Source: a virus. From it: a DNA stretch of 64,000 bases. A program made the translations under genes and the position numbers. Below the pieces are notes generated by a model that was not told the origin of the DNA, ran no database searches, and saw only the letters and a list, made by a program, of their open reading frames with translations. The stretch lies in the IMG/VR virus record IMGVR_UViG_3300047095_000811, positions 72,854 to 136,853 of that record, one strand, 5' to 3'. This document shows, in pieces, positions 317 through 54,477 of this stretch (positions within the stretch are counted from its first letter, which is position 1; every line of letters starts with the position of its first letter).

Positions 317-419
317 AGTTTCTTTCCTTAAGTGAGAAAGTGTGCATAGCTTCCGAAGCCCTTGCACAATGTCAAAGGTTTTGGGATAGCCTTCTAAGTA
401 GTTGTTTGGGAGGACCCTG

Positions 420-1118
420 TCAATATTTGAGGATCTTCTCTACCGGCGAGATGATCTGGTCCTTTTCGCCGCGAGACATGATGACTGCGGACTGCAACGA
501 CTTATTGATGTCTTCGAAGGAGATTGCGTTGAAGACGGAGGTGACGCGGGAGATCTCCTTGATCGAGATGAGCTTGAAATCCTTCGGCGAAACGCTCTTG
601 TCCTTCAAGGCGAGGCGGAGAGGCTTCGTCTCATCCTTGTCCCAGCGGACCAACTCGGACGTGATAGCTTCGATGACGACCGGCTGAGACGCTACACGGG
701 TGTCGTTCATCTGAGCGTTCTTGGAGAACAGGCCGATCAGCTCTTCCGGAGAATTCACGTTGATCTTTGCGGCGATCAAGTAGTTTAGGAACTTATTGAC
801 CGAATCGACCCGCTTGAAGTACGTGGTCGACTCGATGATTACGTCTTCCGGTTCGAACGTCACGTACTTCCCTTCGGAGTCGTCGGTGGCATTGAACGCG
901 TTGATTTTGATGACAACAGGAAGGTTGACCTGATAGTCTTTGTACTTGGCGAAAGAGGCGTCGTCCGAGACCCTCATCACGAAGAAGCCGAGAGTCTGGA
1001 TGTCGGTGTCGATCACCTCTGCCAGTTCATCCTCGAACATCTGCTTCGAGATGATCACTCGGATGTACTTCTTCGCGATCACCTTGTTGTCTTTCTGCTC
1101 TATGAAGGGAAACTTCAT
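420..1118 (-). CDS. phage RNA polymerase beta-prime C-terminal subunit (probably virion RNAP)
   Basis: C-terminal SIKEISRVTSVFNAISFEDINKSL...SPVEKIL resembles the beta-prime C-terminal conserved region. RBS AAGGA precedes ATG 1118 (the ORF track starts at 1181). Lies in the terminase operon. Confidence 0.7.
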   Translation of the reverse strand: MKFPFIEQKDNKVIAKKYIRVIISKQMFEDELAEVIDTDIQTLGFFVMRVSDDASFAKYKDYQVNLPVVIKINAFNATDDSEGKYVTFEPEDVIIESTTYFKRVDSVNKFLNYLIAAKINVNSPEELIGLFSKNAQMNDTRVASQPVVIEAITSELVRWDKDETKPLRLALKDKSVSPKDFKLISIKEISRVTSVFNAISFEDINKSLQSAVIMSRGEKDQIISPVEKILKY

Positions 1119-1182
1119 CTTGAATTCCTTACAGTGATCTAGGTAGATGTTCCCGTATGGCGTTAACCATACGGGAGACACA

Positions 1183-1782
1183 TCACACTTTCTTGAAGAT
1201 CTCGTAAGCCTTACCGCCGAGTACCGGAATCAGGCCGAGGCGGGAGTTGGTGCGCATGATCATGAAGGCGAACTTCACGAAGACGGCGTACTCCTTCGGG
1301 TTAGCGCAGTTCTTGGCGAACAGGTTCACCGTGTTGAACATGCAGATCATCTTCTCGCGGAACTCGGCGTCCTTGATAGAGTCGATGGTCTGCATCACCT
1401 TCTGGTAGTGGAGGCCGACGATCCGGTTGCGGCGGTACAGGGAGCGCATTTCGCGTTCGTCCGTCAGGCGCAGGGAATTTAGGCGCTTCACCCCGGAGAT
1501 GTCCACCATCTCCAGAATCTTCTCGGAGTTATTGATCAGATCGGCGTTCATCAAGACGTTCTTGGCTGCGGCAATCTGGTGGGGCTGGCTCTCGGGGTCG
1601 GCGATGTCGGCTTCTGCCTTCTTCGTCATCCCCTCAAGGTACATGTTCATCACATCGACGTAGCCCTTGCGGATGTCTTCCACGTCTTGCTTCAGCGCGG
1701 CCAGCTTGCCAGCCACGTCCTCTTGGAGGTCGAATTCTTCGCCCAACTCTTCAAGAGTCACTTCGTCCTTTTGTTCTTGCAT
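1183..1782 (-). CDS. hypothetical protein
   Basis: 199-aa ORF, translationally coupled to the upstream gene, genome-typical codon usage. Confidence 0.75.
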   Translation of the reverse strand: MQEQKDEVTLEELGEEFDLQEDVAGKLAALKQDVEDIRKGYVDVMNMYLEGMTKKAEADIADPESQPHQIAAAKNVLMNADLINNSEKILEMVDISGVKRLNSLRLTDEREMRSLYRRNRIVGLHYQKVMQTIDSIKDAEFREKMICMFNTVNLFAKNCANPKEYAVFVKFAFMIMRTNSRLGLIPVLGGKAYEIFKKV

Positions 1783-2528
1783 CAGTTCAGTCCTTTTAGT
1801 TTTTCGACGAGTTCGTCGCGGAACTCGGTTGTGATGTGAGGGAAGTCGTCGTGCTCGGGGAAGTCGCAGACGTAGCGATGGAAAGCCTCGCAGACGTCCA
1901 TCCCGTCAAAGATCTTGTGGATCGTGGAGACTTGGTCGTAGTTCAGCACCAGTCCGTTGATTTCCTCGGTGAGGTCAGCTCCGCTGGAGATGTACTCTGC
2001 GGCAATTTCTTGATAGAACGCGACGAGGCTGATGTATGTCGGAGAGATCTCCGGGACTTCTTCCTTCAGGCGTGGGAGCATGAAGTCTTTCTTCGTCTCT
2101 TTCTTGAACCGCTGGGCGAGATCTTTGCGCTGGGAGATTGCGGATGCAACCATCATGTCCAGAACGTTGCGGCGGCGGTTGAAGTAGAAGAAGTAGTAGA
2201 CGAAGCGCATGTCGGACTGCGAGTCTACAGAGACTGCGGAGGGTTCGATTACTCCTTCGTAGTCCTTGGTGAACTGTTCGTAGATCAGAGTCCACACGGT
2301 CTTCTTGAGCTCTTCGAGAGACTCGCGGTGGTCGTTTTCTTGGGCCACCACGATGGACATGTTGATCTTCTCCAGAATCGCTTCTAGGTAGTCGGTGCTC
2401 TGGGTCTCAAGCTGGAGGCTTTTATTGGCGAGGAACTCCTGAAGCCCCTCGTGCAGAAGGGCGTAGGACTCCTCCATGTAAGCCTCGGGCTCGATGGCGC
2501 TAGGGCTCAGGGAGTCGAGATTGCTCAT
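1782..2528 (-). CDS. hypothetical protein
   Basis: 248-aa ORF directly after the terminase. Confidence 0.75.
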   Translation of the reverse strand: MSNLDSLSPSAIEPEAYMEESYALLHEGLQEFLANKSLQLETQSTDYLEAILEKINMSIVVAQENDHRESLEELKKTVWTLIYEQFTKDYEGVIEPSAVSVDSQSDMRFVYYFFYFNRRRNVLDMMVASAISQRKDLAQRFKKETKKDFMLPRLKEEVPEISPTYISLVAFYQEIAAEYISSGADLTEEINGLVLNYDQVSTIHKIFDGMDVCEAFHRYVCDFPEHDDFPHITTEFRDELVEKLKGLN

Positions 2529-2530
2529 TT

Positions 2531-4591: not shown

Positions 4592-4602
4592 GGTTACTCC
4601 GA

Positions 4603-4636
4603 AAAAAAAAGAGGACACTATCTAAGTGTCCTCTTT
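4603..4636 (-). promoter_or_regulatory. terminator-like hairpin containing a late promoter motif (GACA-cttaga-TA)
   Basis: Inverted repeat AGAGGACACT...AGTGTCCTCT followed by a T-run on the minus strand; motif at 4619-4630, just upstream of terL. Confidence 0.6.
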
Positions 4637-4647
4637 CTCGCAGAGGT

Positions 4648-4907: not shown

Positions 4908-5102
4908 TCAGTGGCGAGTTTGATTCAGTTCGACTTCCAGATAGCTCTGGACGTCAGACATCTTCTCTTCGCCGTCGAAGACGAACTGTTGCCCCGCGAT
5001 CTCAACGATCACGCTGCTGCTTTCCGCCGGGAAAGTCATGGTGCCTTTGAGTGCCCCGATTTTGATCTTGGTGACCAAGTCTTTTTGTTGTACTGTTGCC
5101 AT
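4908..5102 (-). CDS. hypothetical protein
   Basis: 64-aa ORF with AAGGA RBS; AGATATTAT motif upstream at 5156-5164. Confidence 0.65.
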   Translation of the reverse strand: MATVQQKDLVTKIKIGALKGTMTFPAESSSVIVEIAGQQFVFDGEEKMSDVQSYLEVELNQTRH

Positions 5103-5190
5103 TTCAAGGATTCCTTTGCAAAGAAAGGTATCGATAACGCACCGATACCACGATAATAATATCTCCGAATCTGACGGGCAGTTACGGTAA

Positions 5191-5234: not shown

Positions 5235-5855
5235 TTACACCGTCTCGGTGTGCTCTTGGTGGTAGTGATCGCGGATCACAGAAATCTTGGCAAGGTAGTC
5301 GACAATCGTTCTCGGATTGACGTACTTACCGTTCCCGTTCCGCCAGATCGCGTTAGCCATCTGGAGCACTTGGCGCTCCTTGGTGATGAAGTCGTCGTCG
5401 CGACCGATCCGAGCCATGCGGTCTTCCACGCTCAGCTCTTCGTAGTTGACGTCGAGGCCGATCGTCACGATGTTGTAACCAGAGGCAATGTGGTTGTTGC
5501 GCTGGTTCTTTTCCAGCAGATCCTGCAGACCCTCTTCGGCGAGGATGATGGTGGCAATCTTGCCGTCCACGAAGTCGGGGAGTGAACCGTACAGGTCCTT
5601 GAAGATGGATCCGGGATTGGTGCCGAGTACCCCGATCAGGTCGTCCTGCAGGTACCCGAAGGTTTGGCGCTGGATGAAGATGTAGGGGTCGCCTTGGCGC
5701 TCACCGGGGCGCATGGCGCGGGTGGAGAACTGCTGCAGCTTGTAGAACAGCTCCGGATAGTCAGAGATGAGGTTCTTTTCGAGGGTGCTCTTGCCAGAGC
5801 CGGAGACGCCGACGATCGCGAGGATGGTGGGCTTGAGAATCGAGAAGTGTTCCAT
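5235..5855 (-). CDS. guanylate kinase-like nucleoside monophosphate kinase
   Basis: P-loop GVSGSGKST and GMK signature STRAMRPGERQGDPYIF. Confidence 0.8.
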   Translation of the reverse strand: MEHFSILKPTILAIVGVSGSGKSTLEKNLISDYPELFYKLQQFSTRAMRPGERQGDPYIFIQRQTFGYLQDDLIGVLGTNPGSIFKDLYGSLPDFVDGKIATIILAEEGLQDLLEKNQRNNHIASGYNIVTIGLDVNYEELSVEDRMARIGRDDDFITKERQVLQMANAIWRNGNGKYVNPRTIVDYLAKISVIRDHYHQEHTETV

Positions 5856-5984
5856 CTGGGTTTCCTTTCACATTAGAGGACACATTCATTATATATCCTA
5901 AAACGCTGTTTAGCTTTATGACGAATCTGCAAATGCGTCCCTCATATATGATGCTTATGAGATTAAACCTATATGGGGTGTACA

Positions 5985-6248
5985 ATGAACAACTCGCAAA
6001 TCGTTTCGTTCGAAGTAACAGAAGGTGAACTTCTGGAGATCATGACGCGCTCGGCTTCTCAAGAGACTCTTAAGAGACTGAACCGTGTGCGCAGCCAGAT
6101 GGCCGATCTAGCCAGACAGGAAGCAGAACTTCTTGAGAGCCTTCAGAGAGACCGCCTCCGCTTGGATCAATTAGAGCGCCGCAACCAGCTGAATCGCGAC
6201 ATCACCAGGACAATTACGTATGATGCAATGGCACGTCGCCGCTTCTGA
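5985..6248 (+). CDS. hypothetical coiled-coil protein
   Basis: ORF from ATG 5985; ATATATGAT motif at 5944-5952. Confidence 0.65.
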   Translation: MNNSQIVSFEVTEGELLEIMTRSASQETLKRLNRVRSQMADLARQEAELLESLQRDRLRLDQLERRNQLNRDITRTITYDAMARRRF

Positions 6249-6306
6249 TGTAAGAAAAATCACCGGACATTACTATAGTACGGTGATTTTTTTTTGAGAG
6301 GTTATC

Positions 6307-7110: not shown

Positions 7111-7351
7111 GCTTTTATCCTTTTTGGAAATTGATGAAACGGGTGAGTTGTGAAGTGGTGCCCGTTGCCCTTACGGTCTATTGGGCGACCACAGGCTACT
7201 ATTATGTTAGGCTTGCGCGGCATCGAAAAAGTCCGAACTAAGTACCGAAACTAGTTATGACCAATGAGATTGCGTGGCGCAAATCTGGTCTCATCAAGAA
7301 AAATGACGGAATGGCCGAAAATGGCCATTCCGCAGTTCACAAACATTCTTT

Positions 7352-8984: not shown

Positions 8985-9051
8985 GTTTGATTTCCTTGTG
9001 AACTTAAGGCGGGAGCCAATAGAGAAATTCTAAATTTCTGTTTGGCGAAAT

Positions 9052-10290: not shown

Positions 10291-10382
10291 GCAGGATCTC
10301 CTGATGATAGCTATTTTCTTGTTGAACGAACGAAGAAAAAGAAGCTCCCCATAGGCGCACGATGACGCCTATGGGTAAGCCT

Positions 10383-14072: not shown

Positions 14073-15980
14073 TCAGTACAGGCCGTCGATGATGCTTTCT
14101 TCATCCTTGCTGAACATGTTGTTCTCCACAACGTAGTTCAGACGCTCGAAGGCGAGGGTGATCGCCGCCGATGGATGATTGACGAGCGCGTTGGTGAGTT
14201 TGAGGAACTTCAACTTCTCGGGGTTGTCAAAGTTCTTCGGGCGGTGTTGAATGTCGTCCACATCCCTGAGCAACTCGCGGAGGATCAGCTCGATGGTGAG
14301 GCTGCTGGCGCGGATGTTCGAACGTTCGAGAAGGCCGAGGAACTCAGGAAGGATGAGGTGATAATTGCCGGGGTCGGAAATCTTCACCTTCTTCTTGGGC
14401 TCCTCTTCAATCACTTCTTCGATGTTGAGACGGGCCTCGCTCTCCAGAAGGTGGATGATGTTCTTCAGGGGGGTGGAGAGCTCGCTGTTCTCGACGTTGA
14501 TCCGGAAGAGGTTCTCCTGACCGTCGTTCGAAACTTCGATGATGTTGTCTGCCTTGTACTTGGAAACCATGTCGGGGTTCTCAAGCACCACCAGCTCTTC
14601 TCCGTCGGCGAACTCGAACTCGACCTGACGGTCTCCGTCGAGCACCACCATGCGCTTGATGACCGTCTCCTCCTCATCGTTGACGATGATCTCGGTTACG
14701 TTCACCTTGAAGTGCTTCTTGCCGATCAGGTTGGAGCCGTCGATCTCGAAGTACTCGTACATCTTCTGAGGGAGCTTCACCTTCTCCGGGTTGATCTGGA
14801 GCAGGTGCTTCGAGGACAGCAGCATCTGGGTCAGCTGCTCGGTGAGGCTGAGCACGCTGCTGATGCCGATATGGAACGGGTTCACCTTCACCAGATCGCC
14901 GTAGCAGGTGTGGCATATGCCGTCTTCGGCGCAGCAGGTGATCGGAGTGCGGAGCCGGATCTTCTTGCCGACCATACTCTGGTCCCGACCGTCGATCTTG
15001 ACCAGCTTGCCCTTGACAGAGCGGTAGCGACCGTTGAGCCGCTTGAGCGCCGACTTGGACTCGATGACCATTTCGAGGTAGTTGTCGGACCCGCAGTCCT
15101 TGGTCTCAGACAGCTTCTGATTCAGCACCAGGAGCAGGAGCTTCCGCGACATGTAACCAGCGCGGCGCACTTGCAGCGAGTTGGTGATCAGCGCCTTGCG
15201 GGCACCCATCGCCGAGACGAAGTAGTCCATCTCGTTGCGGAACCCGTAGAAGAGGTTCGTGTCCACGCAGTGCGGGAAGATCGCAGATGAGGTCACCTCG
15301 GGCTTGTAGCCGACGTTGCAGAACACCTGCTGGAACTGTCCGATTGACACAGCCGACAGGAGGTTCTTGTAACAGTTGTACTCGTCATCCTTGATGATAG
15401 CTTCGAGCAGCTGGCGGTTTGCGTTCTTGACCTTCTCGTTGCCTTCGAAGTAGTCGACCTTGGAGCCGGTCTCCTCCCGCACCTTGGTCTTCAGCAGAGC
15501 TGCTACTTCCGGATTTCGCTGCATCATCTGCAGCATGTCGTAGATGTTGATGCTGTTGCCAGCGGACTGGTTGACCTCGAATGCCATGTCTGCCAGCTCT
15601 TCGAGGCAGCGGGCGATGATCGCCTTGAGACCAGTGAGGTCAGCGTCCTCGTCGGTCGCCATGCGGATGGTGTCCGTGAAGTACGAGGACACCATCTTCG
15701 CCGCATTGTCTTCTGCGGAACACAGAAGAAGATCGCCCTCGTCGAGATCCCGTTCCAGCACGTAGCGGGCCTTGATCGCGACGAGGGCGAGGACCAAGGC
15801 ACCGAACCGCTGGCTCAGTACCTTGCCCATGAACTTGAACTTCGTTTCCCGACGACGAATCGAGAAGTCGGCCTTCAGGAGAGCGATACACTCGTCCGTG
15901 AAGTTAATCGTCGCTTCCAGATCTTTCTGCTCGACGAAGTTCAGATTTAGAACTTTTTCCTTTTCGTTTTTTGCCACCAT
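14073..15980 (-). CDS. phage RNA polymerase beta-prime middle subunit (probably non-virion RNAP)
   Basis: Bridge helix ARKALI...AGYMSRKL, DCGS, Zn site RTPITC...ICHTCYG, trigger loop EQLTQMLLSSKH; in an operon with replication genes. Confidence 0.88.
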   Translation of the reverse strand: MVAKNEKEKVLNLNFVEQKDLEATINFTDECIALLKADFSIRRRETKFKFMGKVLSQRFGALVLALVAIKARYVLERDLDEGDLLLCSAEDNAAKMVSSYFTDTIRMATDEDADLTGLKAIIARCLEELADMAFEVNQSAGNSINIYDMLQMMQRNPEVAALLKTKVREETGSKVDYFEGNEKVKNANRQLLEAIIKDDEYNCYKNLLSAVSIGQFQQVFCNVGYKPEVTSSAIFPHCVDTNLFYGFRNEMDYFVSAMGARKALITNSLQVRRAGYMSRKLLLLVLNQKLSETKDCGSDNYLEMVIESKSALKRLNGRYRSVKGKLVKIDGRDQSMVGKKIRLRTPITCCAEDGICHTCYGDLVKVNPFHIGISSVLSLTEQLTQMLLSSKHLLQINPEKVKLPQKMYEYFEIDGSNLIGKKHFKVNVTEIIVNDEEETVIKRMVVLDGDRQVEFEFADGEELVVLENPDMVSKYKADNIIEVSNDGQENLFRINVENSELSTPLKNIIHLLESEARLNIEEVIEEEPKKKVKISDPGNYHLILPEFLGLLERSNIRASSLTIELILRELLRDVDDIQHRPKNFDNPEKLKFLKLTNALVNHPSAAITLAFERLNYVVENNMFSKDEESIIDGLY

Positions 15981-17345: not shown

Positions 17346-17610
17346 TTTTCAGTCCTTTCTAGTGACTTGGTACACAGGTAAATTTCCAATCGATTGGAGG
17401 CTCTTGTCAGGCTGACCCTTTTGAGTTAGTATCAGCCTGGAACCACGTAGATTATATCTACGCGATTTCAGGTTTGACGTTTACCGCAGGGTAGTCTAGC
17501 CAGATGTTGGATACGCTGAAACCACATGAATGCACCTTTCTCAATTAGTTACATCCAGAATCGGGTTCCAGCGCTTTCTTTCAAATACGTTCTAAGACGT
17601 TTTTGGTTCT

Positions 17611-18552: not shown

Positions 18553-18836
18553 GCTTCTTCCTTTTGCTTCATTTGCCGTAGTGGCTAAATCGTACCATCG
18601 ATACGTTCCTTTCAGTTTTCCTCTCAGTCGCAGTTGTATTCGGGAATATCTCTTTAGCACATCCCGAGGGGGACTTTAGGGGGTGATAGAGTACGAGATC
18701 ATCTTTAAATAAATAATGATACCGTAACCCAGATCATCCTCTAGGAGCACTGATATGATATATGAGTAATAGTGGATTTGCTTTGTAACTACTCATTAAT
18801 CATGAAACACTTTCATTTTTCTAGGGGATAACCACC

Positions 18837-21800
18837 ATGATGGTTTCAATGGAAAAGATCATCCCGAACAAGATCTACTTCTCGTCTTCTCTCCAGATCA
18901 ATGTGGAAAAGGAAGGGAAGTACATCCTTACTTCGACGGATCCAGAGGATCCACAAAGACTGAAGTCCTTGACGGACTCCATGAAATTCGTGCCTCAAGG
19001 GAAGATGTACCTGTACTTCCCAGAGATGCTGCTGAACCCGGCGACTCTCGCTTCGATCAGCTCCACCAAGGAACGCAACGACTTCTTCAAGGACATCGCA
19101 GAGATCAACCTCGGCCATCAGGCCACCAAGGTCATGAAGCTCTCCGATCTCTCTCAGGAGCAGAAGAGTGACAACCATCCGCTGGTCGTCAACGTCGGCG
19201 GGTACTTCTCCAAGCTGGACTCGTACATCTCGGTCCACAAGAAGACCCCTCAGCAGAAGTACGCTTACCTCAAGCTCGTACTGAAGAAGATCCTGGCAGA
19301 CACCGCGAGGGACATCCCGGAAGGCAAGAAGACGCTGGTCGTGGACATCCAAGGTAACAGCCCGAGAATCGACCCGGTGCTGTTCACCATCGTATACGGC
19401 CTGAAGAAGGACTTCGAGGGGTGCTCCGGTATCTTCTCCGGAGTGGACGTGATCTTGGTCGATCCCGACCACAACCTCTTCGTCAAACTGAATCTGACCG
19501 ACCGCAAGAAAGCCATCCAGTCGGTGAACCTGTCTGCGAAGATGGCTGCTCTCAGCAAGTCGTTCGATCCCAAGAAGGTCATCACCGACAAGGACGTCCA
19601 AGTCGGCGACACTGTGGTATCAGACGACGCCGAAGTGATCGGATCCACCGAAGAGACCCCGATCGACAAGACCGGAGAGGTCACCAATCAGGAAGCTGCC
19701 AAGGCTTCCGAACAGACCAAGGAAGAAGCAGACCACACTGACGTGGACGGCGTATCCCGAGTCGAAGACCTCGATCTCAGCGAGATCATGGCGACCGACA
19801 CCTCTGCCGAGTTCGACCGGCTCGAAAAGGAGAACGCCGAGTTTGTGGCAAAGTTCAAGCCGCAGCAGGACAAAGCCTTCGGCGACGTCCAGAAGAGGGA
19901 AGAAGACTTCGTTCTCCATGTGGAATCGGCAAAGGACGACGCGGTACTCAACCCGAGCATCAAGACCGCCAAGACGGTGGCCCTGACCAACTCCTACCAC
20001 AAGAACCTCTTCAGGAAGGATGTTGCCTCCCTCCTCCAGTCCCTCAATAACGACTCAGAATTCCCTGCCGTCGTGATCTCGCACGAGATGAAGGACTCTT
20101 CGGACCCGCTGAACCTGAAGGACGAGCTTTCCGTCGTCTTCATGGACAAGCAGGGTAAGAAGCACAACTTCACTGTTGACGTTCCCAAACTGTCCTCCGA
20201 CGGCTTCCTGTACATCAACGGCAATAAAAAGTTCATCGCCAAGCAGACGACGCTTTTGCCGCTCATCAAGGAAGCTCCCGACCGAGTCCAGATCACCACG
20301 TCGTACTCGAAGACCTTCTTGTACCGCAAGGGCGACAAGACTAACCCGATGATCGACAGGATCTTTAAGACTCTCATCGGTAAGTCGTACACCGGGGTGA
20401 AGCCCATGTACGGCAATTCCTTCGCGTCCAACATCAAGTACGGCGTCAGTATCCCCTACAACTACCTCTCGAAGCGTCTCTTCACGCTCAGCTTCGATCT
20501 GGGAGCGAAGGCTTCTCTGGACTTCCACTTCAGCCAGAAGCGGATCCGTTCGGTGATGGAGGATGCCGGGATGTCGATCCCGGAAGGGAAGCTGCCGGTT
20601 GCACTGCGGATGATGAACGGCAAGATTGATGCGGTCTACTTCGAGGATGCGTCCACCAGAAAGGTGGAGCAGGTCAGCGGCAAGACGGTCATGAAGACCT
20701 ATCAGAACCTGCAGGACCTGCTCGTCGAGACGATCAGGAACTACAAGAACACCGACGTCCTGAAGGCTTTCGAGGCCACCAATGCAGGCAAGGCGTACAG
20801 CTACACCGACATCAAGCTCGCCGGGACCAGCGTCCCTCTGGGCATCCTCGTCAGCTTCTACCAAGGTCTGCTTCCAGCTCTCGACGGGTACGGCATCAAG
20901 TACACCGTCTCCGCTGAGAAGCGCCGTGCTGCAGAGAACGAGACTCTCATCCAGTTCAAGGACATGAATGTGTACCTGAATCTGGAAGGGGATACTGCTA
21001 AGGAGCTCTTTGCCAACGGTCTGTACTTCCTGAATACCAAGGAGTTCTCCTACCGGGACGCTGAGCGTCGTGGGTCTGTGTTCATCGAGTACTTCGGAGA
21101 GGCAATCGGATCCCGCAACATCGCCAAGGCATACATCAACTTCGAGACCTCGATGATCGACCCGATCACGAAGGAGATCCTCATCGATCTGAAACTGCCA
21201 ACGGAGTTCGTCCCTCTGCTTTACAAGGCGAACGACATGCTGGCGGGGTACTCCCACAAGCGCAAGAACGACATGACGAACTTCCGGGTCAGAGACTCTG
21301 AGGTGCTGTCCGTGGCGATCTACGACGTACTCATGAAGTCCTTCAACGAGTACAAGCGCACCGTGAAGACCGGCGTGGTGACTCCGATCTCTGCGCCGAA
21401 GGACGCCGTGGTCAAGAAGGTGCAGGCTCTCCCGAACGTGGAGGACTATTCGGTTCTGTCTCCGTTCCTCGAAATGGAGCTGAAGTCCAAGACGACATTC
21501 AAAGGTCCGTCCGGCCTCAACAGCTCCGACGCCTACACCGCCGAGATTCGTTCTTACGATCCGTCGATGATCGGCCTGTTCGGCATCTTCTCCCCGGTCT
21601 CCGGGGAGATCGGCGTCAACCGCTCTCTGGTGCTGAACCCGAAGATCCGAAACAACCGTGGGTACCTCGACCATCCGGACGTGGACTCGATGAACATGGA
21701 CAACCTGTTCGCCTCCGGCGAGCTGCTGAACCTGTTCTCCGCGAACCACTCCGACCCGATGCGTACCGGCATGGCTACCACTCAGGGCAAGCACATCGTC

Positions 21801-22952
21801 TCGACGAAGGTGCAGCACAACTACCTGATCGGTACCGGTCTCGACAAGACCATCTCCCAGCTCATCGGGCAAGATTTTGCCTGGAAGGCGGCGGAGGACG
21901 GCGAGATCGTCAAGATCGACCAGCGGAACAAGCTCGTCTTCGTGAAGTACAAGACCGGGCAGACTACCGCGATCGACGTCAGCGACAAGCCCGCCAAGAA
22001 CTCTTCTTCCGGCTTCTGGATCAAGAACAAGCTCGAACTCATCGATGGCCTGAAGGTCGGCTCCAAGTTCAAAAAGGGTCAGACCCTAGCTACTAACCGC
22101 AGCTTCTTCCGGCAGGACATGGACGGATCCCACGGATTTGCCCCCGGAAGGCTCACGAAAGTGGCGATGATGTGCCTCCCAACCACTTACGAAGACTCCG
22201 CCCCTGTCATCGAAAAAGTGGCAAAGGAGATGGCTTCCGACATCATCACCGAGAAGCAGGTGGCGCTGAAAGAGAACTCCAAGATCATCAAGATCGCCAG
22301 CGAAGGCCAGAAGCTCAACGTCAACGACCCCCTCATCATCTTCGAGGAGATCGGCGACAGCGAGAAGGATGCCCTGAGCGCGATCGAGAAGGCGGCTAAA
22401 GCTGCCGAGGGAGACGAGGACTTGGAGCACCTCGGAAGAAACATCATCAAGTCGAAGTACTCCGGTACGATCACCAACGTCAAAGTCTACTACAACTGCG
22501 ACTTGGAGTCCGACGCGATCCACCCGACTCTGAAGGAGTACGTCAAGGGGTACATCTCCAAGGTGAAGTCCCGCTCCGACGCTCTGAAGGGTAACAAGGA
22601 GGACGACCTGATCGAGATGCCGTCCATCGAGCGCATCGACTCTGACAAGATCCTCGGCAACGAGATGTCTGGCGTCCTGATCGTGTTCTACATCGCACAC
22701 GAGGAGAAGATGGACGTTGGCAACAAGCTGGCATTCTTCTCAGCCTGTAAAGGGATCGTCTCGGAAGTCATTCCTGACGACTTGGCTCCTCTGACGGAGT
22801 ACCGAGAGGAAGAGCCTATCGAGGCGGTCGTCTCTCCGATGTCTTTGATCTCTCGTAACACTCCTGACCTTCCGCTCATGGGGTTCTCCAACAAGGTGAT
22901 CCTTGAGCTGAAGAAGCAGTGTATCGAAGAGCTCTTCGGCGACAAGAAGTAA
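18837..22952 (+). CDS. phage RNA polymerase beta subunit (probably virion RNAP)
   Basis: Beta motifs GFLYING, GEIGVNRSL, HSDPMRTGMATTQGKH, YEDS, GNKLAFFSACKGIV, VVSPMSLISR; late-type motif upstream. Confidence 0.9.
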   Translation: MMVSMEKIIPNKIYFSSSLQINVEKEGKYILTSTDPEDPQRLKSLTDSMKFVPQGKMYLYFPEMLLNPATLASISSTKERNDFFKDIAEINLGHQATKVMKLSDLSQEQKSDNHPLVVNVGGYFSKLDSYISVHKKTPQQKYAYLKLVLKKILADTARDIPEGKKTLVVDIQGNSPRIDPVLFTIVYGLKKDFEGCSGIFSGVDVILVDPDHNLFVKLNLTDRKKAIQSVNLSAKMAALSKSFDPKKVITDKDVQVGDTVVSDDAEVIGSTEETPIDKTGEVTNQEAAKASEQTKEEADHTDVDGVSRVEDLDLSEIMATDTSAEFDRLEKENAEFVAKFKPQQDKAFGDVQKREEDFVLHVESAKDDAVLNPSIKTAKTVALTNSYHKNLFRKDVASLLQSLNNDSEFPAVVISHEMKDSSDPLNLKDELSVVFMDKQGKKHNFTVDVPKLSSDGFLYINGNKKFIAKQTTLLPLIKEAPDRVQITTSYSKTFLYRKGDKTNPMIDRIFKTLIGKSYTGVKPMYGNSFASNIKYGVSIPYNYLSKRLFTLSFDLGAKASLDFHFSQKRIRSVMEDAGMSIPEGKLPVALRMMNGKIDAVYFEDASTRKVEQVSGKTVMKTYQNLQDLLVETIRNYKNTDVLKAFEATNAGKAYSYTDIKLAGTSVPLGILVSFYQGLLPALDGYGIKYTVSAEKRRAAENETLIQFKDMNVYLNLEGDTAKELFANGLYFLNTKEFSYRDAERRGSVFIEYFGEAIGSRNIAKAYINFETSMIDPITKEILIDLKLPTEFVPLLYKANDMLAGYSHKRKNDMTNFRVRDSEVLSVAIYDVLMKSFNEYKRTVKTGVVTPISAPKDAVVKKVQALPNVEDYSVLSPFLEMELKSKTTFKGPSGLNSSDAYTAEIRSYDPSMIGLFGIFSPVSGEIGVNRSLVLNPKIRNNRGYLDHPDVDSMNMDNLFASGELLNLFSANHSDPMRTGMATTQGKHIVSTKVQHNYLIGTGLDKTISQLIGQDFAWKAAEDGEIVKIDQRNKLVFVKYKTGQTTAIDVSDKPAKNSSSGFWIKNKLELIDGLKVGSKFKKGQTLATNRSFFRQDMDGSHGFAPGRLTKVAMMCLPTTYEDSAPVIEKVAKEMASDIITEKQVALKENSKIIKIASEGQKLNVNDPLIIFEEIGDSEKDALSAIEKAAKAAEGDEDLEHLGRNIIKSKYSGTITNVKVYYNCDLESDAIHPTLKEYVKGYISKVKSRSDALKGNKEDDLIEMPSIERIDSDKILGNEMSGVLIVFYIAHEEKMDVGNKLAFFSACKGIVSEVIPDDLAPLTEYREEEPIEAVVSPMSLISRNTPDLPLMGFSNKVILELKKQCIEELFGDKK

Positions 22953-23000: not shown

Positions 23001-23051
23001 CATTTTTAGTACTCCTGACTGCCACAACTCAGTGATAGAAAGGAGTCCACG

Positions 23052-23407: not shown

Positions 23408-23417
23408 TATAGATATG

Positions 23418-23966
23418 TTAGTATTTTCGGCTGTCGTAAGCCCACTGTAGCAGGGCCTGACGCTGTACGGGACGGCAAGTGGCATCCCCTTTCTTGCAGT
23501 TCTTGGTGAGCTGCGCCTTGTGCCTCACAAAAGACTTCCAGCGGGCGCACTGTTTTGCATCGACCTTCTCGTCGCGGCGTCCCATGTACGCCCGACAATA
23601 CCACTGGAACCATCCGCGAGGGTCGTCGCCCACGATCCACCCTTGCTTCCTCCAGTGCGACAGCGGCTTTCTGGATTTCACCTTGAAGTAGTTCAGCTCA
23701 GGATCAGCATCTCCGCCATCCTTCACCACCTTGGCACCACTGAACCAAGAAGAGGGGAACTCTCCGTGGCAATCGTTGAGGTACTTACCTTCGAAGACAC
23801 CGAGAGCCAGCATCTCTTTTGGAGTCAGCTCAGGGTCGAAGCCATATTTCTCCTTCAAGTCAGAGAGGTCGCCTTCCTTGACAGTCAGCTCATAAGAGTA
23901 ACCCTTCTGCATCTTGTCGCTAACCTTGACGGTCTTTCGTTTACCTTCAAGAAGAATGAATTTCAT
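23418..23966 (-). CDS. conserved hypothetical protein (DPRGWFQWYCR family)
   Basis: Motifs TPKEMLALGVFEGKY, DPRGWFQWYCRAYMGRR, RQALLQWAYD. Confidence 0.75.
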   Translation of the reverse strand: MKFILLEGKRKTVKVSDKMQKGYSYELTVKEGDLSDLKEKYGFDPELTPKEMLALGVFEGKYLNDCHGEFPSSWFSGAKVVKDGGDADPELNYFKVKSRKPLSHWRKQGWIVGDDPRGWFQWYCRAYMGRRDEKVDAKQCARWKSFVRHKAQLTKNCKKGDATCRPVQRQALLQWAYDSRKY

Positions 23967-24029
23967 GTTTTCCCCAAGAAAAAAGTACACACTAAGGAAA
24001 AGTTAGAGGGGCGCAGAGGCCCCTCCTCC

Positions 24030-24934: not shown

Positions 24935-25340
24935 TTCTCTTCCTTTCAACATAGGACTTTAGGACTCCGTCCGTCGGTTCAAAGTCCATCTTTCCCTCTA
25001 CGAAAATCCGGTACGACTCTAGGGCATACCAGCCGATTCCATGCATCTTGCTCAGTTCGTCTATGCTTGACGGCGGATTGGCTACCCACTCCGCAGCTAG
25101 GCGGATTATCATTTTCGATCGCCGGTTCATCAATCCTAGCGACCTGATCGTCTCCACCATCTTCGGCAGGTCTTCTTCCTTCACACATTTGGGAGTAGGC
25201 CAATGTCGGAAGAACTCATCTACTACGCTCTTTACCTGCTCACCAGTGGTCCTGTTCAACAGGATGCTACTGATGACTACCCGCCAAGCATCGCCGTGAT
25301 AACTCTCTTGAACTAACTTGTATTCGGTATTGCGTCGCAT
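24915..25340 (-). CDS. MBD4-like HhH-GPD mismatch DNA glycosylase
   Basis: LVQE..DAW..ISSILLNRTTG, LGL..RR, HGIGWYALESYRIF and P-T-D (catalytic Asp position) parallel the MBD4 glycosylase domain. Confidence 0.85.
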   Translation of the reverse strand: MRRNTEYKLVQESYHGDAWRVVISSILLNRTTGEQVKSVVDEFFRHWPTPKCVKEEDLPKMVETIRSLGLMNRRSKMIIRLAAEWVANPPSSIDELSKMHGIGWYALESYRIFVEGKMDFEPTDGVLKSYVERKRNEQRER

Positions 25341-25453
25341 GGTTGTCCTCCTTACCATATGACACCGCATCTCTCGGCGTTATCCTTCCGCCACGCTAAT
25401 GATATATCAAGAAAAAAAGATTCGAGCGAACTCGAATCTTTTCTCCTGCATCC

Positions 25454-25591: not shown

Positions 25592-25694
25592 TTCGGTTCT
25601 CCAATTAGAAGGTTGATATCACAAGAATTATATCTGCCGGACTGGGTTGCAGATACGGGAACACAGAAATAGCTAACTTACAAGGAGAGCTGTA

Positions 25695-26446: not shown

Positions 26447-26567
26447 TTGAAACTCCTTGCAAAGATACGGTAATCCGGATGGCTACCACGAAAATTATAT
26501 ATCACTGTTGGGAGCTTACTTCCGGTACGGCAACAACACCTTAGACCTCATAATAAAAGGAAGAACC

Positions 26568-27119: not shown

Positions 27120-27132
27120 GAAACAACTTGTT

Positions 27133-27215
27133 AGTGTGGGACAGTTGTTCTGCACTTGCATCATGCTTTGTCCTTTCTTTTCCCCTAACCCTTTGCCGGG
27201 TTAGGGGTCTTTTTA
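27133..27215 (+). ncRNA. candidate late small RNA, about 80 nt
   Basis: AACA-acttgt-TA at 27122-27133, GGACA...TGTCC stem, then terminator CCCCTAACCC-tttgcc-GGGTTAGGGG-TCTTTTT. Confidence 0.35.
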
Positions 27216-27257
27216 CTTCGAAGGACATCTGTATAGACCAAATAATCGGAGCTAGAA

Positions 27258-30006: not shown

Positions 30007-30085
30007 ATTGGCAAGGAAGTTTCGTGGCTACACTCGGGGTAGCCATGCAACACCGGAATAGTCTCATCATCTTAGCGAAACTCCA

Positions 30086-30709: not shown

Positions 30710-30794
30710 AGACATGACGTATGAGACTCGTTCTCATACGTCATTACTTTTTTTGCAAATATATTATCACCATGTGAGATTCTCGGAGAAATAA

Positions 30795-31166
30795 ATGATA
30801 CCAATAATGAAGCCGCTTACAGTGATATCGATGGATATCGAAAGGGAAGAGTCCCCGATCACCTTCATCGACCACTTCGCGTCTGTCGGCGGGTTGCAGC
30901 CTGTCTACTCTCGATCTTCTACGACGACGATGAAAATCGTGACTCCTTCCTTAGACGATCCGTCCGTTTACCATGCCGATTTTTTCGTTGTGGCGAACCC
31001 TCGCCTCCAAAGGCACCCAGTCAGTCTCGGAAACCCGACCAGCGAGCACGACGAGAAGGTGCAACAACTCAATACTTTCCTGGAGATTCTTCAATTCGCT
31101 AGGACAAACCCAGTTGCAAGAGAGAAGTTGGAGGACCTGTTCAAGCTCCGACAGCTTCTCGGATGA
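30795..31166 (+). CDS. hypothetical protein
   Basis: 123 aa; ATATATTAT at 30759-30767; first gene of the sbcD-dnaB operon. Confidence 0.7.
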   Translation: MIPIMKPLTVISMDIEREESPITFIDHFASVGGLQPVYSRSSTTTMKIVTPSLDDPSVYHADFFVVANPRLQRHPVSLGNPTSEHDEKVQQLNTFLEILQFARTNPVAREKLEDLFKLRQLLG

Positions 31167-34780: not shown

Positions 34781-34821
34781 CAAAGCAACACCAGATTAGC
34801 TTATTGATCTGGAAGGTTCTC

Positions 34822-36873: not shown

Positions 36874-36877
36874 ACTG

Positions 36878-39881: not shown

Positions 39882-39982
39882 GCTTGGTTCCTTTCTTCTT
39901 GAACACGCATATCATATATGTCATATTTTTCTGTTGCACAGATAAAAATCTCCATACGGCGCTAACCGTATGGAGATCCGTA

Positions 39983-40855: not shown

Positions 40856-40862
40856 ATTTTCC

Positions 40863-42365: not shown

Positions 42366-42396
42366 GATTTTCCTTCCAGGAAATCCTTTTGCAAAT

Positions 42397-42432
42397 TATT
42401 TCAATGTTCTTTGAGAATTTAACAGGTAGATA
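42397..42432. promoter_or_regulatory. back-to-back late promoter motifs (AACA-N6-TA on both strands)
   Basis: Minus strand AACA-ttgaaa-TA (42397-42408) and plus strand AACA-ggtaga-TA (42421-42432). Confidence 0.75.
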
Positions 42433-42465
42433 ATCACCATTTTAGGTTTCTAGAAGGAAAACGTC

Positions 42466-50823: not shown

Positions 50824-50917
50824 TGAAGTCGGTAACGATTAATTAGACAGGTATTCACGGATGGCCCTACAGGTGAAAAGCCTGTAGGGCCTCCTCATTT
50901 CTTCGCATGGTGACCAA

Positions 50918-52327
50918 ATGGCCGACGAAAACAATCCGTATTCTCAATTCTACCAGCCGGGGTTCGGTACCATCATCGGTCGGCCCCTTGCTTTCAATCC
51001 TCGGTGCGATCCTCACCAGAGGATCTTCCAAGAGACGCTGCTGCAGAACAACACAATCATCCGCGTCACCCCCGGAGTCTATCACTTCGAGAAGGACAAG
51101 CTGGAGGCGGCTGATCTGATCCTCAAGGATCATTCCAAGCAGGTCGACGAGATCAAGAAGTCCAGAAGAACCACTGCGGCAGAAGAGCTCGACCAGCTCA
51201 ACGCCCAGACCCAGCAGATTCTCATCAAGGAAGGTATCGACATGCGATACCTGACCTTCAAGCCAGCGTTCGCCGAGTTCTTGACCGCCTACCAGCTTCT
51301 GGTGAACCGGGCAGGCACCTCTCTGACCGGGCGGTCCAATGCCAGCACGATGACGAAGTTCACGACTAACATCATGGACTTCATGCTGCACAACGACGCC
51401 AAGCAAAGCTCCAAGTACCGTGGGTTCAACCTGTGGGTGGAGAAGTCTACGTCTATCTCCGAGACGGTGTCTAACTCCTTCTCGGACTCCGTCTTCCAGG
51501 GTCTGACCGACAAGATCGGCAACGCCGCGAGAGAGTTCCAGGTTCTGACGGGGATGAACTTCGGCACCTTCAACGAGTCGAACAACGTCGAGGTGACGAC
51601 TCAGAACAACATCGGGTCCAACGAGGCTTCCACGGTTGGCCGTCTGGTCCAGACTGCCGCGACGACTGCCTCCGGCGCGAAGGTCGTCCTTCCGCAGATC
51701 TGGAATGACAGCAAGTTCGACCGCAGCTACAACGTGTCGTTCCGTTTCATGTCCCCGTACGGCGACGACCGATCCGTCTTTGTGAACGTCATCCTGCCGT
51801 TCCTCTTCATCTTGGCCTGCGCACTTCCGACTCAGGACGGTCCTTCCGGCATGAAGTTCCCTTTCCTGCTACAGATGGACTGCCCCGGCTACTTCAGCTG
51901 CCCTATGGGCGTGATCAGCAACCTGAGCTTCACCAAGGGCGGCTCCGATGCGCTCTTCAATCGCTCCGGACTCCCTCTGATCATCGAGGGTACCTTCAGC
52001 GTGATGGATCTGTACAGCTCTCTGTCTCTGCCCATCAACGATTCTCAGTTTGTGACTAACCTCGGAACTGCTGCGTTCATCAACAACTTGGTTGGTGCGT
52101 CGCTGTATCAGGCGATCGACACCGGCATCAAGGACAACCTGCAGAACTATGTCAAGGGCGGTCTCTTGAAAATGGTCAGTCCGTTCAATTCTCTAGACGC
52201 CAAACAGCTAGACCTGATGCGTTACGCTGGCATTGCCACCGACCAGACGACTCCGCTAGGATCTACCGTCGCCAACAAGATCGGTCAGGCCGTGAACAAC
52301 GTGATGGGAATGCTATCGAAGTACTGA
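50918..52327 (+). CDS. putative baseplate hub / tail-tube initiator-type protein
   Basis: 469 aa immediately after the TMP, beta-rich tube-like C-terminal half; role inferred from synteny. Confidence 0.55.
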   Translation: MADENNPYSQFYQPGFGTIIGRPLAFNPRCDPHQRIFQETLLQNNTIIRVTPGVYHFEKDKLEAADLILKDHSKQVDEIKKSRRTTAAEELDQLNAQTQQILIKEGIDMRYLTFKPAFAEFLTAYQLLVNRAGTSLTGRSNASTMTKFTTNIMDFMLHNDAKQSSKYRGFNLWVEKSTSISETVSNSFSDSVFQGLTDKIGNAAREFQVLTGMNFGTFNESNNVEVTTQNNIGSNEASTVGRLVQTAATTASGAKVVLPQIWNDSKFDRSYNVSFRFMSPYGDDRSVFVNVILPFLFILACALPTQDGPSGMKFPFLLQMDCPGYFSCPMGVISNLSFTKGGSDALFNRSGLPLIIEGTFSVMDLYSSLSLPINDSQFVTNLGTAAFINNLVGASLYQAIDTGIKDNLQNYVKGGLLKMVSPFNSLDAKQLDLMRYAGIATDQTTPLGSTVANKIGQAVNNVMGMLSKY

Positions 52328-52382
52328 CCGCCACGGAACAGCAGTTTAGTAGAATCGTCATCCTTTCCAGAAGGAATTCAAA

Positions 52383-53177: not shown

Positions 53178-53221
53178 GAAAAGAAACCCCCTATGGCGTA
53201 ATTGCCATAGGGGTTCTTTTT
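53178..53221. terminator. bidirectional terminator
   Basis: ACCCCTATGGC-gtaatt-GCCATAGGGGT with A- and T-runs. Confidence 0.85.
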
Positions 53222-53594
53222 ACCCTTTGAGGGTCACGCCGAGCTCTTTCGCTCTGGCTCTGATCATGGGGATCACTTCGCCTTCCATCGACTTGTACAA
53301 GTCGATCATGTCGTCGTCACTGTGAGCGAGATTGTGGATCCCGGTCGTGCCGACTCTGGACTTGAAGTCCGCGATGGAGGCTTTGTAGTTGTCTAGGACT
53401 TGCTGGAGATCTTCTTGCTTGTCCATGTGCTGGAGGGCCTTCTTGACGATGGCGATGCCAGCGTCTTTCCCGATCTTGTGGCCGAAACTCCGGAAGAGCG
53501 AGAACGGCCAGAAATCGAGACGGAAAGCCTTGAAGGCGATGTTGTCTTCCGAGAGGAAGAAGTTCTTGTAATCGTGGACGGACGTTGCCATCAT
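53220..53594 (-). CDS. hypothetical late protein
   Basis: 124 aa, coupled to the upstream gene. Confidence 0.7.
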   Translation of the reverse strand: MMATSVHDYKNFFLSEDNIAFKAFRLDFWPFSLFRSFGHKIGKDAGIAIVKKALQHMDKQEDLQQVLDNYKASIADFKSRVGTTGIHNLAHSDDDMIDLYKSMEGEVIPMIRARAKELGVTLKG

Positions 53595-54061
53595 TTCACC
53601 TTCAGCATCTTGTCCTTCGCTTCCATGCGAAGGTGCTTCAACTTCGTGACGTGGTGGTCAACGATAGACTTCTGGTCGTCCTTGATGAAGTGAGCGGCCA
53701 GCAAGCCAGCGCCCAGCCCAATCAGAGCACCAGTCCCTTCGTGACCGCGATCTGCAGCCAGTGCGCCGACCAGCGCGCCGCCCTGCATGTAAGCTCCGAC
53801 TCGTTCGCCGCTGCGCTTGTTCTCGGTGTACCCGCAGTCTTCCAGAGCGTCCTCGATATCCTGGGTGAGGATTTCAATTTCGGTACGGTTCTTTGCGGTT
53901 CCAAGGCGAAGCTCGAAGCGGCGAGCTAGATCGTCGCCCTGACCGTTCATCACCTTACGGAAGTACGGATTGTCCTGACTATGGGAGTACTCGTTCAGAG
54001 CCTCCGCATCGGTCACTTCTCCGCTGAGGAAGAAGCCGACCAAATCTTGCACTCTTGACAT
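53591..54061 (-). CDS. hypothetical late protein with glycine-zipper segment
   Basis: GGALVGALA...GALIGLGAGLLA; late promoter motif at 54091-54102. Confidence 0.7.
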   Translation of the reverse strand: MSRVQDLVGFFLSGEVTDAEALNEYSHSQDNPYFRKVMNGQGDDLARRFELRLGTAKNRTEIEILTQDIEDALEDCGYTENKRSGERVGAYMQGGALVGALAADRGHEGTGALIGLGAGLLAAHFIKDDQKSIVDHHVTKLKHLRMEAKDKMLKVK

Positions 54062-54477
54062 GATTTACCTTTGGTGGTGGATCTACAGACTAATGCAGTG
54101 TTCTTGTCGCACTTGAACAGTTTGTCGAGAACTTTCACCAAAGTTTCGGGTTTGAACGGCTTGATGATGTAGCCGTTCACCCCGAGTTTCACCATCTCTT
54201 CGATGCGCTTCTTCTCGCACTCGGCGGTCAGCATGACCACAGGAGTCCTTTCCATGCCGGGAGTCTGCCGCACCTTGGCGACTAGGTCTCCCCCTGTCAT
54301 GTTCGGCATGTTCCAGTCGCTGATGACTAGATCGTACTTGCTGAGCTGGAGAGATTCGAACGCTTCCCTCCCGCAGCTAGCCTCGGAGACGGTGCATCCG
54401 TACTCCTTGACGATGGCCGAAACGATGCGCCTCATCGTGGACATGTCGTCCACGACCAATACTCTTTTGCTCTTCAA
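54013..54477 (-). CDS. cheY: CheY-like single-domain response regulator
   Basis: VLVVDD, SDWNMP (phospho-Asp), MLTAE and YIIKPF; TTG start with GAGGT RBS. Confidence 0.88.
   Translation of the reverse strand: MKSKRVLVVDDMSTMRRIVSAIVKEYGCTVSEASCGREAFESLQLSKYDLVISDWNMPNMTGGDLVAKVRQTPGMERTPVVMLTAECEKKRIEEMVKLGVNGYIIKPFKPETLVKVLDKLFKCDKNTALVCRSTTKGKSCQECKIWSASSSAEK

Follow-up and report, generated by a model that had tools for sequence, protein, structure and literature searches.

AACA-N6-TAG, a probable AR9-type late promoter motif in a GC-rich jumbo phage from lake water

The linear 136,853-bp contig of IMG/VR record IMGVR_UViG_3300047095_000811 ends in a 64-kb stretch (bases 72,854-136,853, hereafter the window; positions refer to it unless given as contig positions) in which many genes are preceded by a short sequence element, AACA-N6-TA, usually followed by G. 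This element very probably is the late promoter of a GC-rich lake-water jumbo phage in the clade of phages AR9, PBS1, and phiR1-37. A preliminary description of the window had proposed that the phage uses the late-promoter logic of AR9, and sequence analysis supports this: the consensus and the spacer length are identical, the phages are related, homologues of the betaN and beta'C subunits of the AR9 non-virion RNA polymerase (RNAP) are encoded, the same spacing stands out in the AR9 genome itself, and 14 of 15 structural or packaging genes lie behind the motif or a variant of it.

A simple caller based on codon bias gave 132 genes on the contig and left 11.7% of it as intergenic DNA, and motif counts for the contig are given as total / intergenic / intergenic with a start codon on the same strand within 160 nucleotides (nt). 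AACA-N6-TA is found 42 / 38 / 31 times, as compared to 27 / 2 / 1 for AACA-N5-TA and 16 / 1 / 0 for AACA-N7-TA. All spacers of N2-N5 and N7-N10 yield only 1-8 intergenic copies each, against 38 at N6, and calling genes by the longest open reading frame (ORF) instead gives 42 / 33 / 26 for AACA-N6-TA. The enrichment over shuffled controls that the preliminary description had asked to see is present in the window, with 21 copies of AACA-N6-TA versus 9.05±2.99 and 14 copies of AACA-N6-TAG versus 3.11±2.14; in neither case did any of 100 shuffles reach the observed number. In an enumeration of 45,046 dyads (a 4-mer, a gap of 0-10, and a 2-mer), AACA-N6-TA ranks eighth for intergenic excess (binomial p 5.5e-32), preceded only by six dyads of A/T runs and by ATATAT. 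The motif is also directional, as a start codon follows within 60 nt downstream in 23 of the 42 copies and in the opposite direction in four. The distance from motif to start codon has a median of 42 nt and ranges from 17 to 152 nt. Counting the A of TA as +1, position +2 is G in 26 of 38 intergenic and 18 of 26 gene-oriented copies, whereas the form with G at +1, AACA-N6-TG, is not enriched on the contig (54 / 6 / 2).

For each gene, the same strand was followed upstream to the first promoter-like motif, counting also a second, early-type motif (ATATATnAT-N4-GTG, see below), and genes were classed by their PHROG labels. Among the 15 structural or packaging genes, 12 are preceded by the exact late motif, two by a late variant, and one by the early-type motif only; none has both motifs and none lacks a motif. 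The 19 genes of DNA, RNA, and nucleotide metabolism comprise nine with the exact late motif, four with late and early motifs together, four with the early-type motif only, and two with neither; no late variants occur in this class. The earlier statement that the motif lies upstream of nearly every virion gene thus holds if exact and variant forms are taken together, but the motif also precedes 13 of the 19 metabolism genes. Genes for SbcC/SbcD-like, RusA-like, HU-like, and kinase-like proteins lie behind it too, several of them with an early-type motif as well. It heads almost all virion operons without being confined to them, and the late class that it was proposed to mark is not cleanly defined by it. 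Conservation of the motif at orthologous genes in phiR1-37 is modest (47 pairs, contingency table 11/8/8/20, one-sided p 0.044). For annotation, the motif offers a simple map, open to testing, of the late transcription units of this uncultured jumbo phage, and the late and early motifs together sort about 130 genes, mostly without an assigned function, into three groups: early, late, and both.

CheckV rates the contig as 52% complete; its G+C content is 55%, and the window was found nearly complete in two lake-water metagenome DNA runs. Sequence searches against PHROG, Pfam, and PDB revealed jumbo-phage genes for a tail sheath, a major head protein, a portal-like protein, a prohead protease, and a terminase, besides a tail protein of 2785 amino acids (aa), a split DNA polymerase, SbcCD-like proteins, and a DnaB-like helicase. 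Also encoded are a ribonucleotide reductase, a deoxycytidine monophosphate (dCMP) deaminase, and several split multisubunit RNAP genes. The 1371-aa RNAP subunit is 39.4% identical, at 100% coverage, to g099 of Yersinia phage phiR1-37; its next-best matches are in Listeria, Staphylococcus, and Bacillus (AR9/PBS1) jumbo phages (31-34% identity), and a megablast search of the RNAP gene against phages gave no match. The gene order of the window follows phiR1-37 g099-g103 (RNAP, Ham1-like pyrophosphatase, structural protein, RNAP, dCMP deaminase), with reciprocal best hits for g099, g100, g102, and g103 and none for the gene in the position of g101. This gene (16299-17345) corresponds to the structural gene g101 by synteny only. 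A second block, g194-g196, is likewise syntenic on the contig. In all, 47 genes have reciprocal best hits in phiR1-37, and protein identities in eight compared pairs are 24-41%. By these sequence relationships, the phage is an uncultured lake-water member of the AR9/PBS1/phiR1-37 clade.

The non-virion RNAP of AR9 consists of five subunits, gp270, gp154, gp105, gp089, and gp226, and homologues of gp105 (betaN) and gp154 (beta'C) are present here. The beta'C homologue has 635 aa (631 aa in AR9), matches chain D of PDB entry 7S00 (E 7.1e-52), and is 33.5% identical to phiR1-37 g102, while the 494-aa betaN homologue (contig 42147-43631) matches chain c of 7S00 (E 3.3e-84). A 521-aa beta'N-like contig protein shows a weak match to AR9 gp270 (E 1.4e-8), and betaC was not identified on the 52%-complete contig. 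In AR9, the pocket for the uracil at position -10 is formed partly by betaN residues R363 and K375 (PMC9209446); the lake phage keeps R363 and, like phiR1-37, has R in place of K375. AR9 further requires gp226 for promoter binding (PMC5449584, PMC9209446). In phiR1-37 and AR9, the gene for this specificity subunit adjoins the GroEL and primase genes, and because these neighbours too are absent from the fragment, it probably resides in the unseen half of the genome. Searches of databases for this missing half by specificity-subunit alignment returned four loci in IMG/VR and seven in metagenomes, none of which can represent it, since all have 24-38% G+C. A match of phrog_25005 in the N-terminal region of the gene for the 1371-aa RNAP subunit (13.8 bits, E 0.0012) was discarded, as it was not reproduced by a hidden Markov model (HMM) built from six sequences. 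Neither the 472-aa nor the 500-aa protein, encoded directly behind sites 27224 and 42397, respectively, had a match in sequence searches of PDB, and no relative of the 500-aa protein was found in IMG/VR.

By analogy to AR9, the multisubunit non-virion RNAP of the phage, together with a gp226-type sigma-like subunit, would bind the template-strand complement of AACA at -11 to -8. RNA would start at the A of TA, and leaders of 17-150 nt, with a median of 42, would precede virion and packaging genes as well as some of the replication genes. The motif ATATATnAT-N4-GTG would represent early promoters used by the injected virion polymerase, and a gene behind both motifs would be expressed over the whole course of infection. 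Several points weigh against this interpretation. The transcription starts are predictions, and both the identity of the enzyme reading the motif and its possible uracil dependence are inferred from sequence and from AR9. The homologue of the AR9 promoter-specificity subunit, for which the preliminary description had suggested a search, was not found on the 52%-complete contig by tblastn with AR9 gp226 or phiR1-37 g245, and the best hit of the six-sequence HMM among 1,333 six-frame ORFs of the contig has an E value of 6.7; the alignment scans of IMG/VR and metagenomes yielded AT-rich relatives only. An exact motif is absent in front of the terminase gene, genes 50918-52327 and 60495-61067, and the virion-RNAP beta gene, and two variant sites (4619 and 6266) lie in hairpins that may be terminators. 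Conservation at the level of orthologs is not significant in the comparison with AR9 (31 pairs, p 0.36). Furthermore, the gene calls stem from the codon-bias caller and not from curated annotation, and at least three "intergenic" copies (25258, 31063, and 54091) are located inside ORFs that it skipped. Finally, contigs of four RNA libraries aligned to positions 25001-45000 of the window were 151-561 nt long and of low depth, are possibly derived from DNA, and show no pile-ups of ends; the RNA libraries with matches to the window contain only 6-13% of the sampled words.

Other explanations of the motif can be weighed against the same data. Intergenic DNA is richer in A+T than the contig as a whole (48% versus 55% G+C), and for the degenerate form RACA-N6-TA the excess in the window is marginal (37 copies versus 24.77±5.44, a number reached by three of 100 shuffles); both would fit a motif produced by chance or composition. 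However, spacing controls made of the same letters leave 1-8 intergenic copies where N6 has 38, no shuffle reaches the count of AACA-N6-TA, and the direction is biased by 23 to 4. The spacing and shuffle controls refute this explanation, and its probability is negligible. Promoters of the host RNAP, dependent on sigma-70 or on a phage-encoded sigma factor, are a highly improbable alternative that no specific observation favours. The motif lacks a -35/-10 architecture, the phage has two multisubunit RNAP gene sets of its own, and sigma-70-like sequences (TTGACA-N16-18-TATAAT) occur at chance level in positions 22001-42000 of the window (8 versus 8.4±2.9), none of them at the head of a gene or operon. 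The motif could also act at the RNA level, as a processing site or leader element, or bind another phage factor without marking a transcription start. Its orientation and fixed short distance to start codons would suit a leader element as well, and several copies lie beside or within hairpins. Yet its word and spacing are identical to those of the AR9 promoter mapped by differential RNA sequencing (dRNA-seq), primer extension, and in vitro transcription (PMC5312081, PMC5449584), start codons follow at variable distances (17 to 152 nt), the back-to-back divergent copies at 42397 and 42421 fit promoters, and no common secondary structure was apparent by eye around the sites. We therefore consider a function other than transcription initiation very unlikely and regard the motif as a probable promoter.

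Whether this promoter is read in uracil or in thymine DNA is a separate matter, and the motif by itself does not imply uracil. Purified AR9 non-virion RNAP reads AACA on the template strand and needs uracils at -11 and -10 (PMC5449584, PMC9209446). That the 55% G+C lake phage has deoxyuridine in its DNA and a polymerase that recognises AACA-N6-TAG via template-strand uracils has a probability just short of even in our estimate; for uracil DNA in the phage as such, the chances appear roughly even or slightly better. A thymine-containing phage with the same promoter and polymerase, in which AACA is read without a requirement for uracil, is a serious possibility too, somewhat below an even chance. 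A single change, V206G, makes AR9 gp226 accept thymine (PMC9209446), and a gp226 homologue with a counterpart of this uracil-selecting valine was not found on the fragment. However, phiR1-37 as the nearest characterised relative has deoxyuridine DNA (PMC7598289, PMC10303552), and ThyA, ThyX, and dUTPase are without matches (PF00303, PF02511, PF00692) on the 136.8 kb, which represent half of the genome. In addition, the dCMP deaminase gene (13492-14049, minus strand) occupies the same syntenic place as phiR1-37 g103, and orthologues of phiR1-37 g207 (36% identity over 870 aa; contig 30836-33427, minus strand) and g196 (31% over 855 aa; contig 37932-40640, minus strand) are present. Both belong to the six proteins listed as exclusive to uracil-DNA phages, which in phiR1-37 are g196, g207, g234, g244, and g278/g282 (PMC10303552, Table 3). 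An orthologue of g244 was not found on the contig; g234 and g278/g282 are not among the reciprocal best hits, and no direct search for them was made. Because g196 and g207 probably are structural proteins, they may mark the lineage instead of the DNA chemistry, which weakens the case for uracil, as does the unseen half of the genome. If the phage does have uracil DNA and reads its promoters in this way, then uracil genomes and uracil-gated promoters would reach GC-rich environmental hosts, beyond the few AT-rich phages that infect Bacillus, Staphylococcus, Listeria, and Yersinia, and the shared TAG extension would supply the late-promoter consensus that the phiR1-37 transcriptome study did not yield. 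An ORF for an HhH-GPD (endonuclease III / MutY-like) glycosylase-like protein (24915-25370, minus strand) behind an early-type motif would be of note in a uracil-DNA phage.

The sites and the two RNAP genes of the window are compiled in Table 1. Of the 17 sites listed in the preliminary description, 16 are exact copies of RACA-N6-TA on the strand given there, and the remaining one, at 18806-18817, is AACA-N6-TT as described; its two "orphan" copies and three AACT variants were also located. The list was correct but incomplete, as six exact copies (1140, 5899, 26498, and 39924 on the minus and 25258 and 31063 on the plus strand) had been overlooked. Site 25258 is either a chance occurrence or an antisense start, and chance is the probable explanation because it runs antisense to the ORF that contains it and no G follows the TA. 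Of the two "orphans", 23408 precedes a short ORF with a Shine-Dalgarno sequence, and 27122 is followed by a terminator-like hairpin; the stretch 27122-27215 may be a leader or a candidate short RNA. Site 17497 probably also feeds the downstream genes of RNAP beta'C and dCMP deaminase.

The degenerate first position of the motif, [A/G]ACA, was generally upheld for A only. With 16 copies in the window, GACA does not exceed its remaining share of the RACA expectation in shuffles, and the contig count of GACA-N6-TA (27 / 9 / 6) is slightly above the N5 and N7 controls (0 and 1 gene-oriented copies). GACA is not generally supported as a class, and the only credible sites are the three copies of GACA-N6-TAG, at 4619 (minus), 6266, and 27224 (both plus), all of which are intergenic and gene-oriented and had been noticed before. 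Since two of them, 4619 and 6266, are situated within strong hairpins followed by nine U residues, the word may have arisen by chance within terminators; composite elements, terminator and promoter in one, are the alternative. The AACT variants at 23026 and 23993 are credible because AACT-N6-TAG reaches 6 / 5 / 5 on the contig, against 10 / 1 / 0 for N5 and 3 / 0 / 0 for N7, and the AACT site at 18787, with A at +2, is a weaker candidate. The suggested TT variant found no support: among 36 contig copies of AACA-N6-TT, seven are intergenic and none of these has a start codon on the same strand within 160 nt. AACG-N6-TAG, with six copies versus 4.28 expected, is not enriched either.

Table 1. 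Promoter-like sites and RNA polymerase genes in the window (hairpin energies in kcal/mol with z scores)
Feature	Position	Strand	Context
Late promoter-like AACA-N6-TAG	395..406	-	79 nt upstream of tail sheath ATG 316 (phrog_19666)
Late promoter-like AACA-N6-TAG	1140..1151	-	22 nt upstream of virion structural gene 420-1118
GACA-N6-TAG variant	4619..4630	-	28 nt upstream of terminase ATG 4591; in terminator-like hairpin 4596-4645(-) + U9, -26.7 kcal/mol, z -7.1
Late promoter-like AACA-N6-TAG	5899..5910	-	44 nt upstream of guanylate-kinase-like gene 5235-5855; tandem with early-type motif
GACA-N6-TAG variant	6266..6277	+	30 nt upstream of gene 6307-6639; loop of terminator-like hairpin 6252-6300(+) + U9, -15.6 kcal/mol, z -4.7
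Late promoter-like AACA-N6-TAG	7197..7208	-	87 nt upstream of HU-like DNA-binding protein gene 6700-7110
Late promoter-like AACA-N6-TAG	9031..9042	-	47 nt upstream of gene 8073-8984
Late promoter-like AACA-N6-TAG	10312..10323	-	22 nt upstream of virion structural gene 9052-10290
Late promoter-like AACA-N6-TAG	17497..17508	-	152 nt upstream of gene 16299-17345; early-like motif between
AACT-N6-TA variant, A at +2 (weak candidate)	18787..18798	+	38 nt upstream of ATG 18837, virion-RNAP beta gene
AACA-N6-TT (variant class without support)	18806..18817	+	
AACT-N6-TAG variant	23026..23037	+	15 nt upstream of weak 68-aa ORF 23052-23258
AACA-N6-TA	23408..23419	-	17 nt upstream of 61-aa ORF 23206-23391 with Shine-Dalgarno sequence
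AACT-N6-TAG variant	23993..24004	-	upstream of gene 23418-23990; T-run and Shine-Dalgarno sequence after it
AACA-N6-TA, no G at +2	25258..25269	+	antisense within HhH-GPD ORF 24915-25370(-)
Late promoter-like AACA-N6-TAG	25660..25671	+	24 nt upstream of DUF5856 gene 25695-26054
AACA-N6-TA (ambiguous)	26498..26509	-	overlaps early-type motif 26487-26502; 52 nt upstream of gene 26108-26446
Late promoter-like AACA-N6-TAG	26532..26543	+	25 nt upstream of ATG 26568, RusA-like resolvase gene
AACA-N6-TAG	27122..27133	+	about 50 nt before terminator-like hairpin 27182-27207 with T-run, then site 27224
GACA-N6-TAG variant	27224..27235	+	23 nt upstream of gene 27258-28676 (472 aa)
Late promoter-like AACA-N6-TAG	30049..30060	+	26 nt upstream of gene 30086-30709 (strong codon bias)
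AACA-N6-TA, internal promoter candidate	31063..31074	+	inside ORF 30795-31166; 105 nt upstream of SbcD-like gene
Late promoter-like AACA-N6-TAG	34787..34798	+	24 nt upstream of ATG 34822; heads operon with baseplate-wedge-like gene 36393-36836
AACA-N6-TA	39924..39935	-	43 nt upstream of SbcC-like gene 37131-39881; tandem with early-type motif
Late promoter-like AACA-N6-TA	42397..42408	-	32 nt upstream of gene 40863-42365 (500 aa); half of divergent pair
Late promoter-like AACA-N6-TA	42421..42432	+	34 nt upstream of 2785-aa tail / tape-measure-like gene; other half of divergent pair
AACG-N6-TAG, candidate only (class not enriched)	50834..50846	+	72 nt upstream of virion structural gene 50918-52327
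Late promoter-like AACA-N6-TAG	52337..52348	+	35 nt upstream of head maturation protease gene
Late promoter-like AACA-N6-TAG	54091..54102	-	30 nt upstream of gene 53591-54061; in 3' end of CheY-like ORF
Early-type motif, 1 mismatch	5149..5164	-	upstream of 64-aa ORF 4908-5102
Early-type motif, exact	5881..5896	-	26 nt upstream of kinase-like gene 5235-5855
Early-type motif, 1 mismatch	5944..5959	+	upstream of ORF 5973-6248
Early-type motif, 1 mismatch	17444..17459	-	99 nt upstream of gene 16299-17345
Early-type motif, exact	18748..18763	-	upstream of Ham1-like nucleoside triphosphate pyrophosphatase gene 17611-18660
Early-type motif, exact	25392..25407	-	upstream of HhH-GPD glycosylase-like ORF 24915-25370
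Early-type motif, 1 mismatch	25620..25635	-	upstream of 45-aa ORF 25454-25591
Early-type motif, exact	26487..26502	-	41 nt upstream of gene 26108-26446
Early-type motif, 1 mismatch	30759..30774	+	upstream of ORF 30795-31166 and SbcD-like gene
Early-type motif, exact	39904..39919	-	23 nt upstream of SbcC-like gene
Early-type motif, 1 mismatch	55775..55790	+	33 nt upstream of gene 55823-56992
Early-type motif, exact	59032..59047	+	30 nt upstream of gene 59077-59343
beta'C homologue gene, non-virion RNAP	14073..15980	-	635 aa; matches phiR1-37 g102
Virion-RNAP beta-like gene	18837..22952	+	1371 aa; matches phiR1-37 g099

The early-type motif ATATATnAT-N4-GTG is present in 14 exact and 10 one-mismatch copies on the contig, all 24 of which are intergenic and gene-oriented, mostly 13-100 nt before a start codon. 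The genes behind it are small uncharacterised genes and those for the Ham1-like pyrophosphatase, the glycosylase-like ORF, nicotinamide adenine dinucleotide (NAD) salvage, and DNA polymerase. Early and late motifs stand in tandem at the kinase-like gene (5881/5899), the SbcC-like gene (39904/39924), and an operon running from 17345 to 11856 that includes RNAP beta'C and dCMP deaminase. The NAD-salvage genes code for nicotinamide phosphoribosyltransferase and phosphoribosyl pyrophosphate synthetase (contig 15027-17805 and 21314-22482, both minus strand), and a cluster of five transfer RNA genes (Glu, Ser, Tyr, Ala, Asn) is found near them.

Some further genes are of separate interest. The CheY-like response-regulator receiver ORF that overlaps site 54091 (54013-54477, minus strand; PF00072, E 7.6e-29) was skipped by the gene caller. 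It adjoins a gene for a 422-aa protein (54484-55752, minus strand), the N-terminal 150 aa of which match the anti-CBASS Acb1 family (PF23474, E 4.8e-23). Elsewhere on the contig, a protein with GGDEF and EAL domains (23845-25266, minus strand; E 3.4e-45 and 2.6e-63), which are domains of cyclic dimeric guanosine monophosphate turnover, and a divergent adenylosuccinate-synthetase-like protein (1817-3004, minus strand) are encoded. An assignment of the latter to PurZ, which would have suggested a diaminopurine genome, was rejected, as PurA models outscore PurZ and all scores are below the cut-offs.

The closest functional precedent is the late system of AR9, whose promoter, AACA-(6N)-T-A/G, has the transcription start at its final base; dRNA-seq showed this consensus at 94 of the 118 starts that are not early (PMC5312081). 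As a positive control, AACA-N6-TA occurs 274 / 80 / 64 times in the AR9 genome, against 18-45 intergenic copies at other spacings. Both phages share the tetranucleotide, the 6-nt spacer, and TA (PMC5312081, PMC5449584, PMC7598289), prefer A/T at -3 and -2, and have the motif before virion genes and, at some replication genes, in tandem with early promoters; the tandem arrangement matches the "continuously expressed" class of AR9. They differ in G+C content (55% versus 28%), and the G at +1 that the AR9 consensus allows is not enriched here. The AR9 early promoter, used by the virion RNAP, is AAATATATATTAT-(6N)-G(+1) (PMC5312081); the early-type motif of the lake phage resembles it in having an AT-rich block and a conserved G 7 nt after it, but the block is shorter and an additional GT is conserved before the presumed +1 G.

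With phiR1-37 (NC_016163.1), the closest sequenced relative, the resemblance extends to the downstream G. AACA-N6-TAG occurs there 69 / 57 / 50 times, versus 0-6 intergenic copies at other spacings. The TAG extension is common to the lake phage and phiR1-37, because G is at +2 in 18 of 26 and 50 of 57 copies, respectively, whereas in AR9 it is near background (12 of 64). According to PMC5312081, the transcriptome study of phiR1-37 yielded no late consensus, and that study saw no new conserved sequences (PMC4848604). Literature text searches, which covered main texts, retrieved no report of a phiR1-37 late-promoter consensus, so that the motif rests on the count given here; the signal points to an unreported late promoter of this cultivable uracil-DNA phage. 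The two phages also have in common the synteny at g099-g103 and g194-g196 and the R at betaN position 375, but phiR1-37 has 32.5% G+C and a Yersinia host, in contrast to the 55% G+C and lake-water origin of the phage described here. More distantly, the non-virion RNAP of phiKZ belongs to the same broad family of split multisubunit phage enzymes with a fifth, sigma-like subunit (gp68). Phages of the phiKZ type have thymine DNA and form a phage nucleus. The late promoter word of phiKZ is a different one, TATG (PMC7598289). Compared to these systems, the lake phage is a GC-rich freshwater addition to an already known kind of promoter and polymerase, and the early-promoter motif and the AACA-N6-TAG signal of phiR1-37 are the most useful by-products of its analysis. 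The AR9 promoter code appears to hold at 55% G+C, where the motif stands out far more clearly than in the AT-rich relatives.

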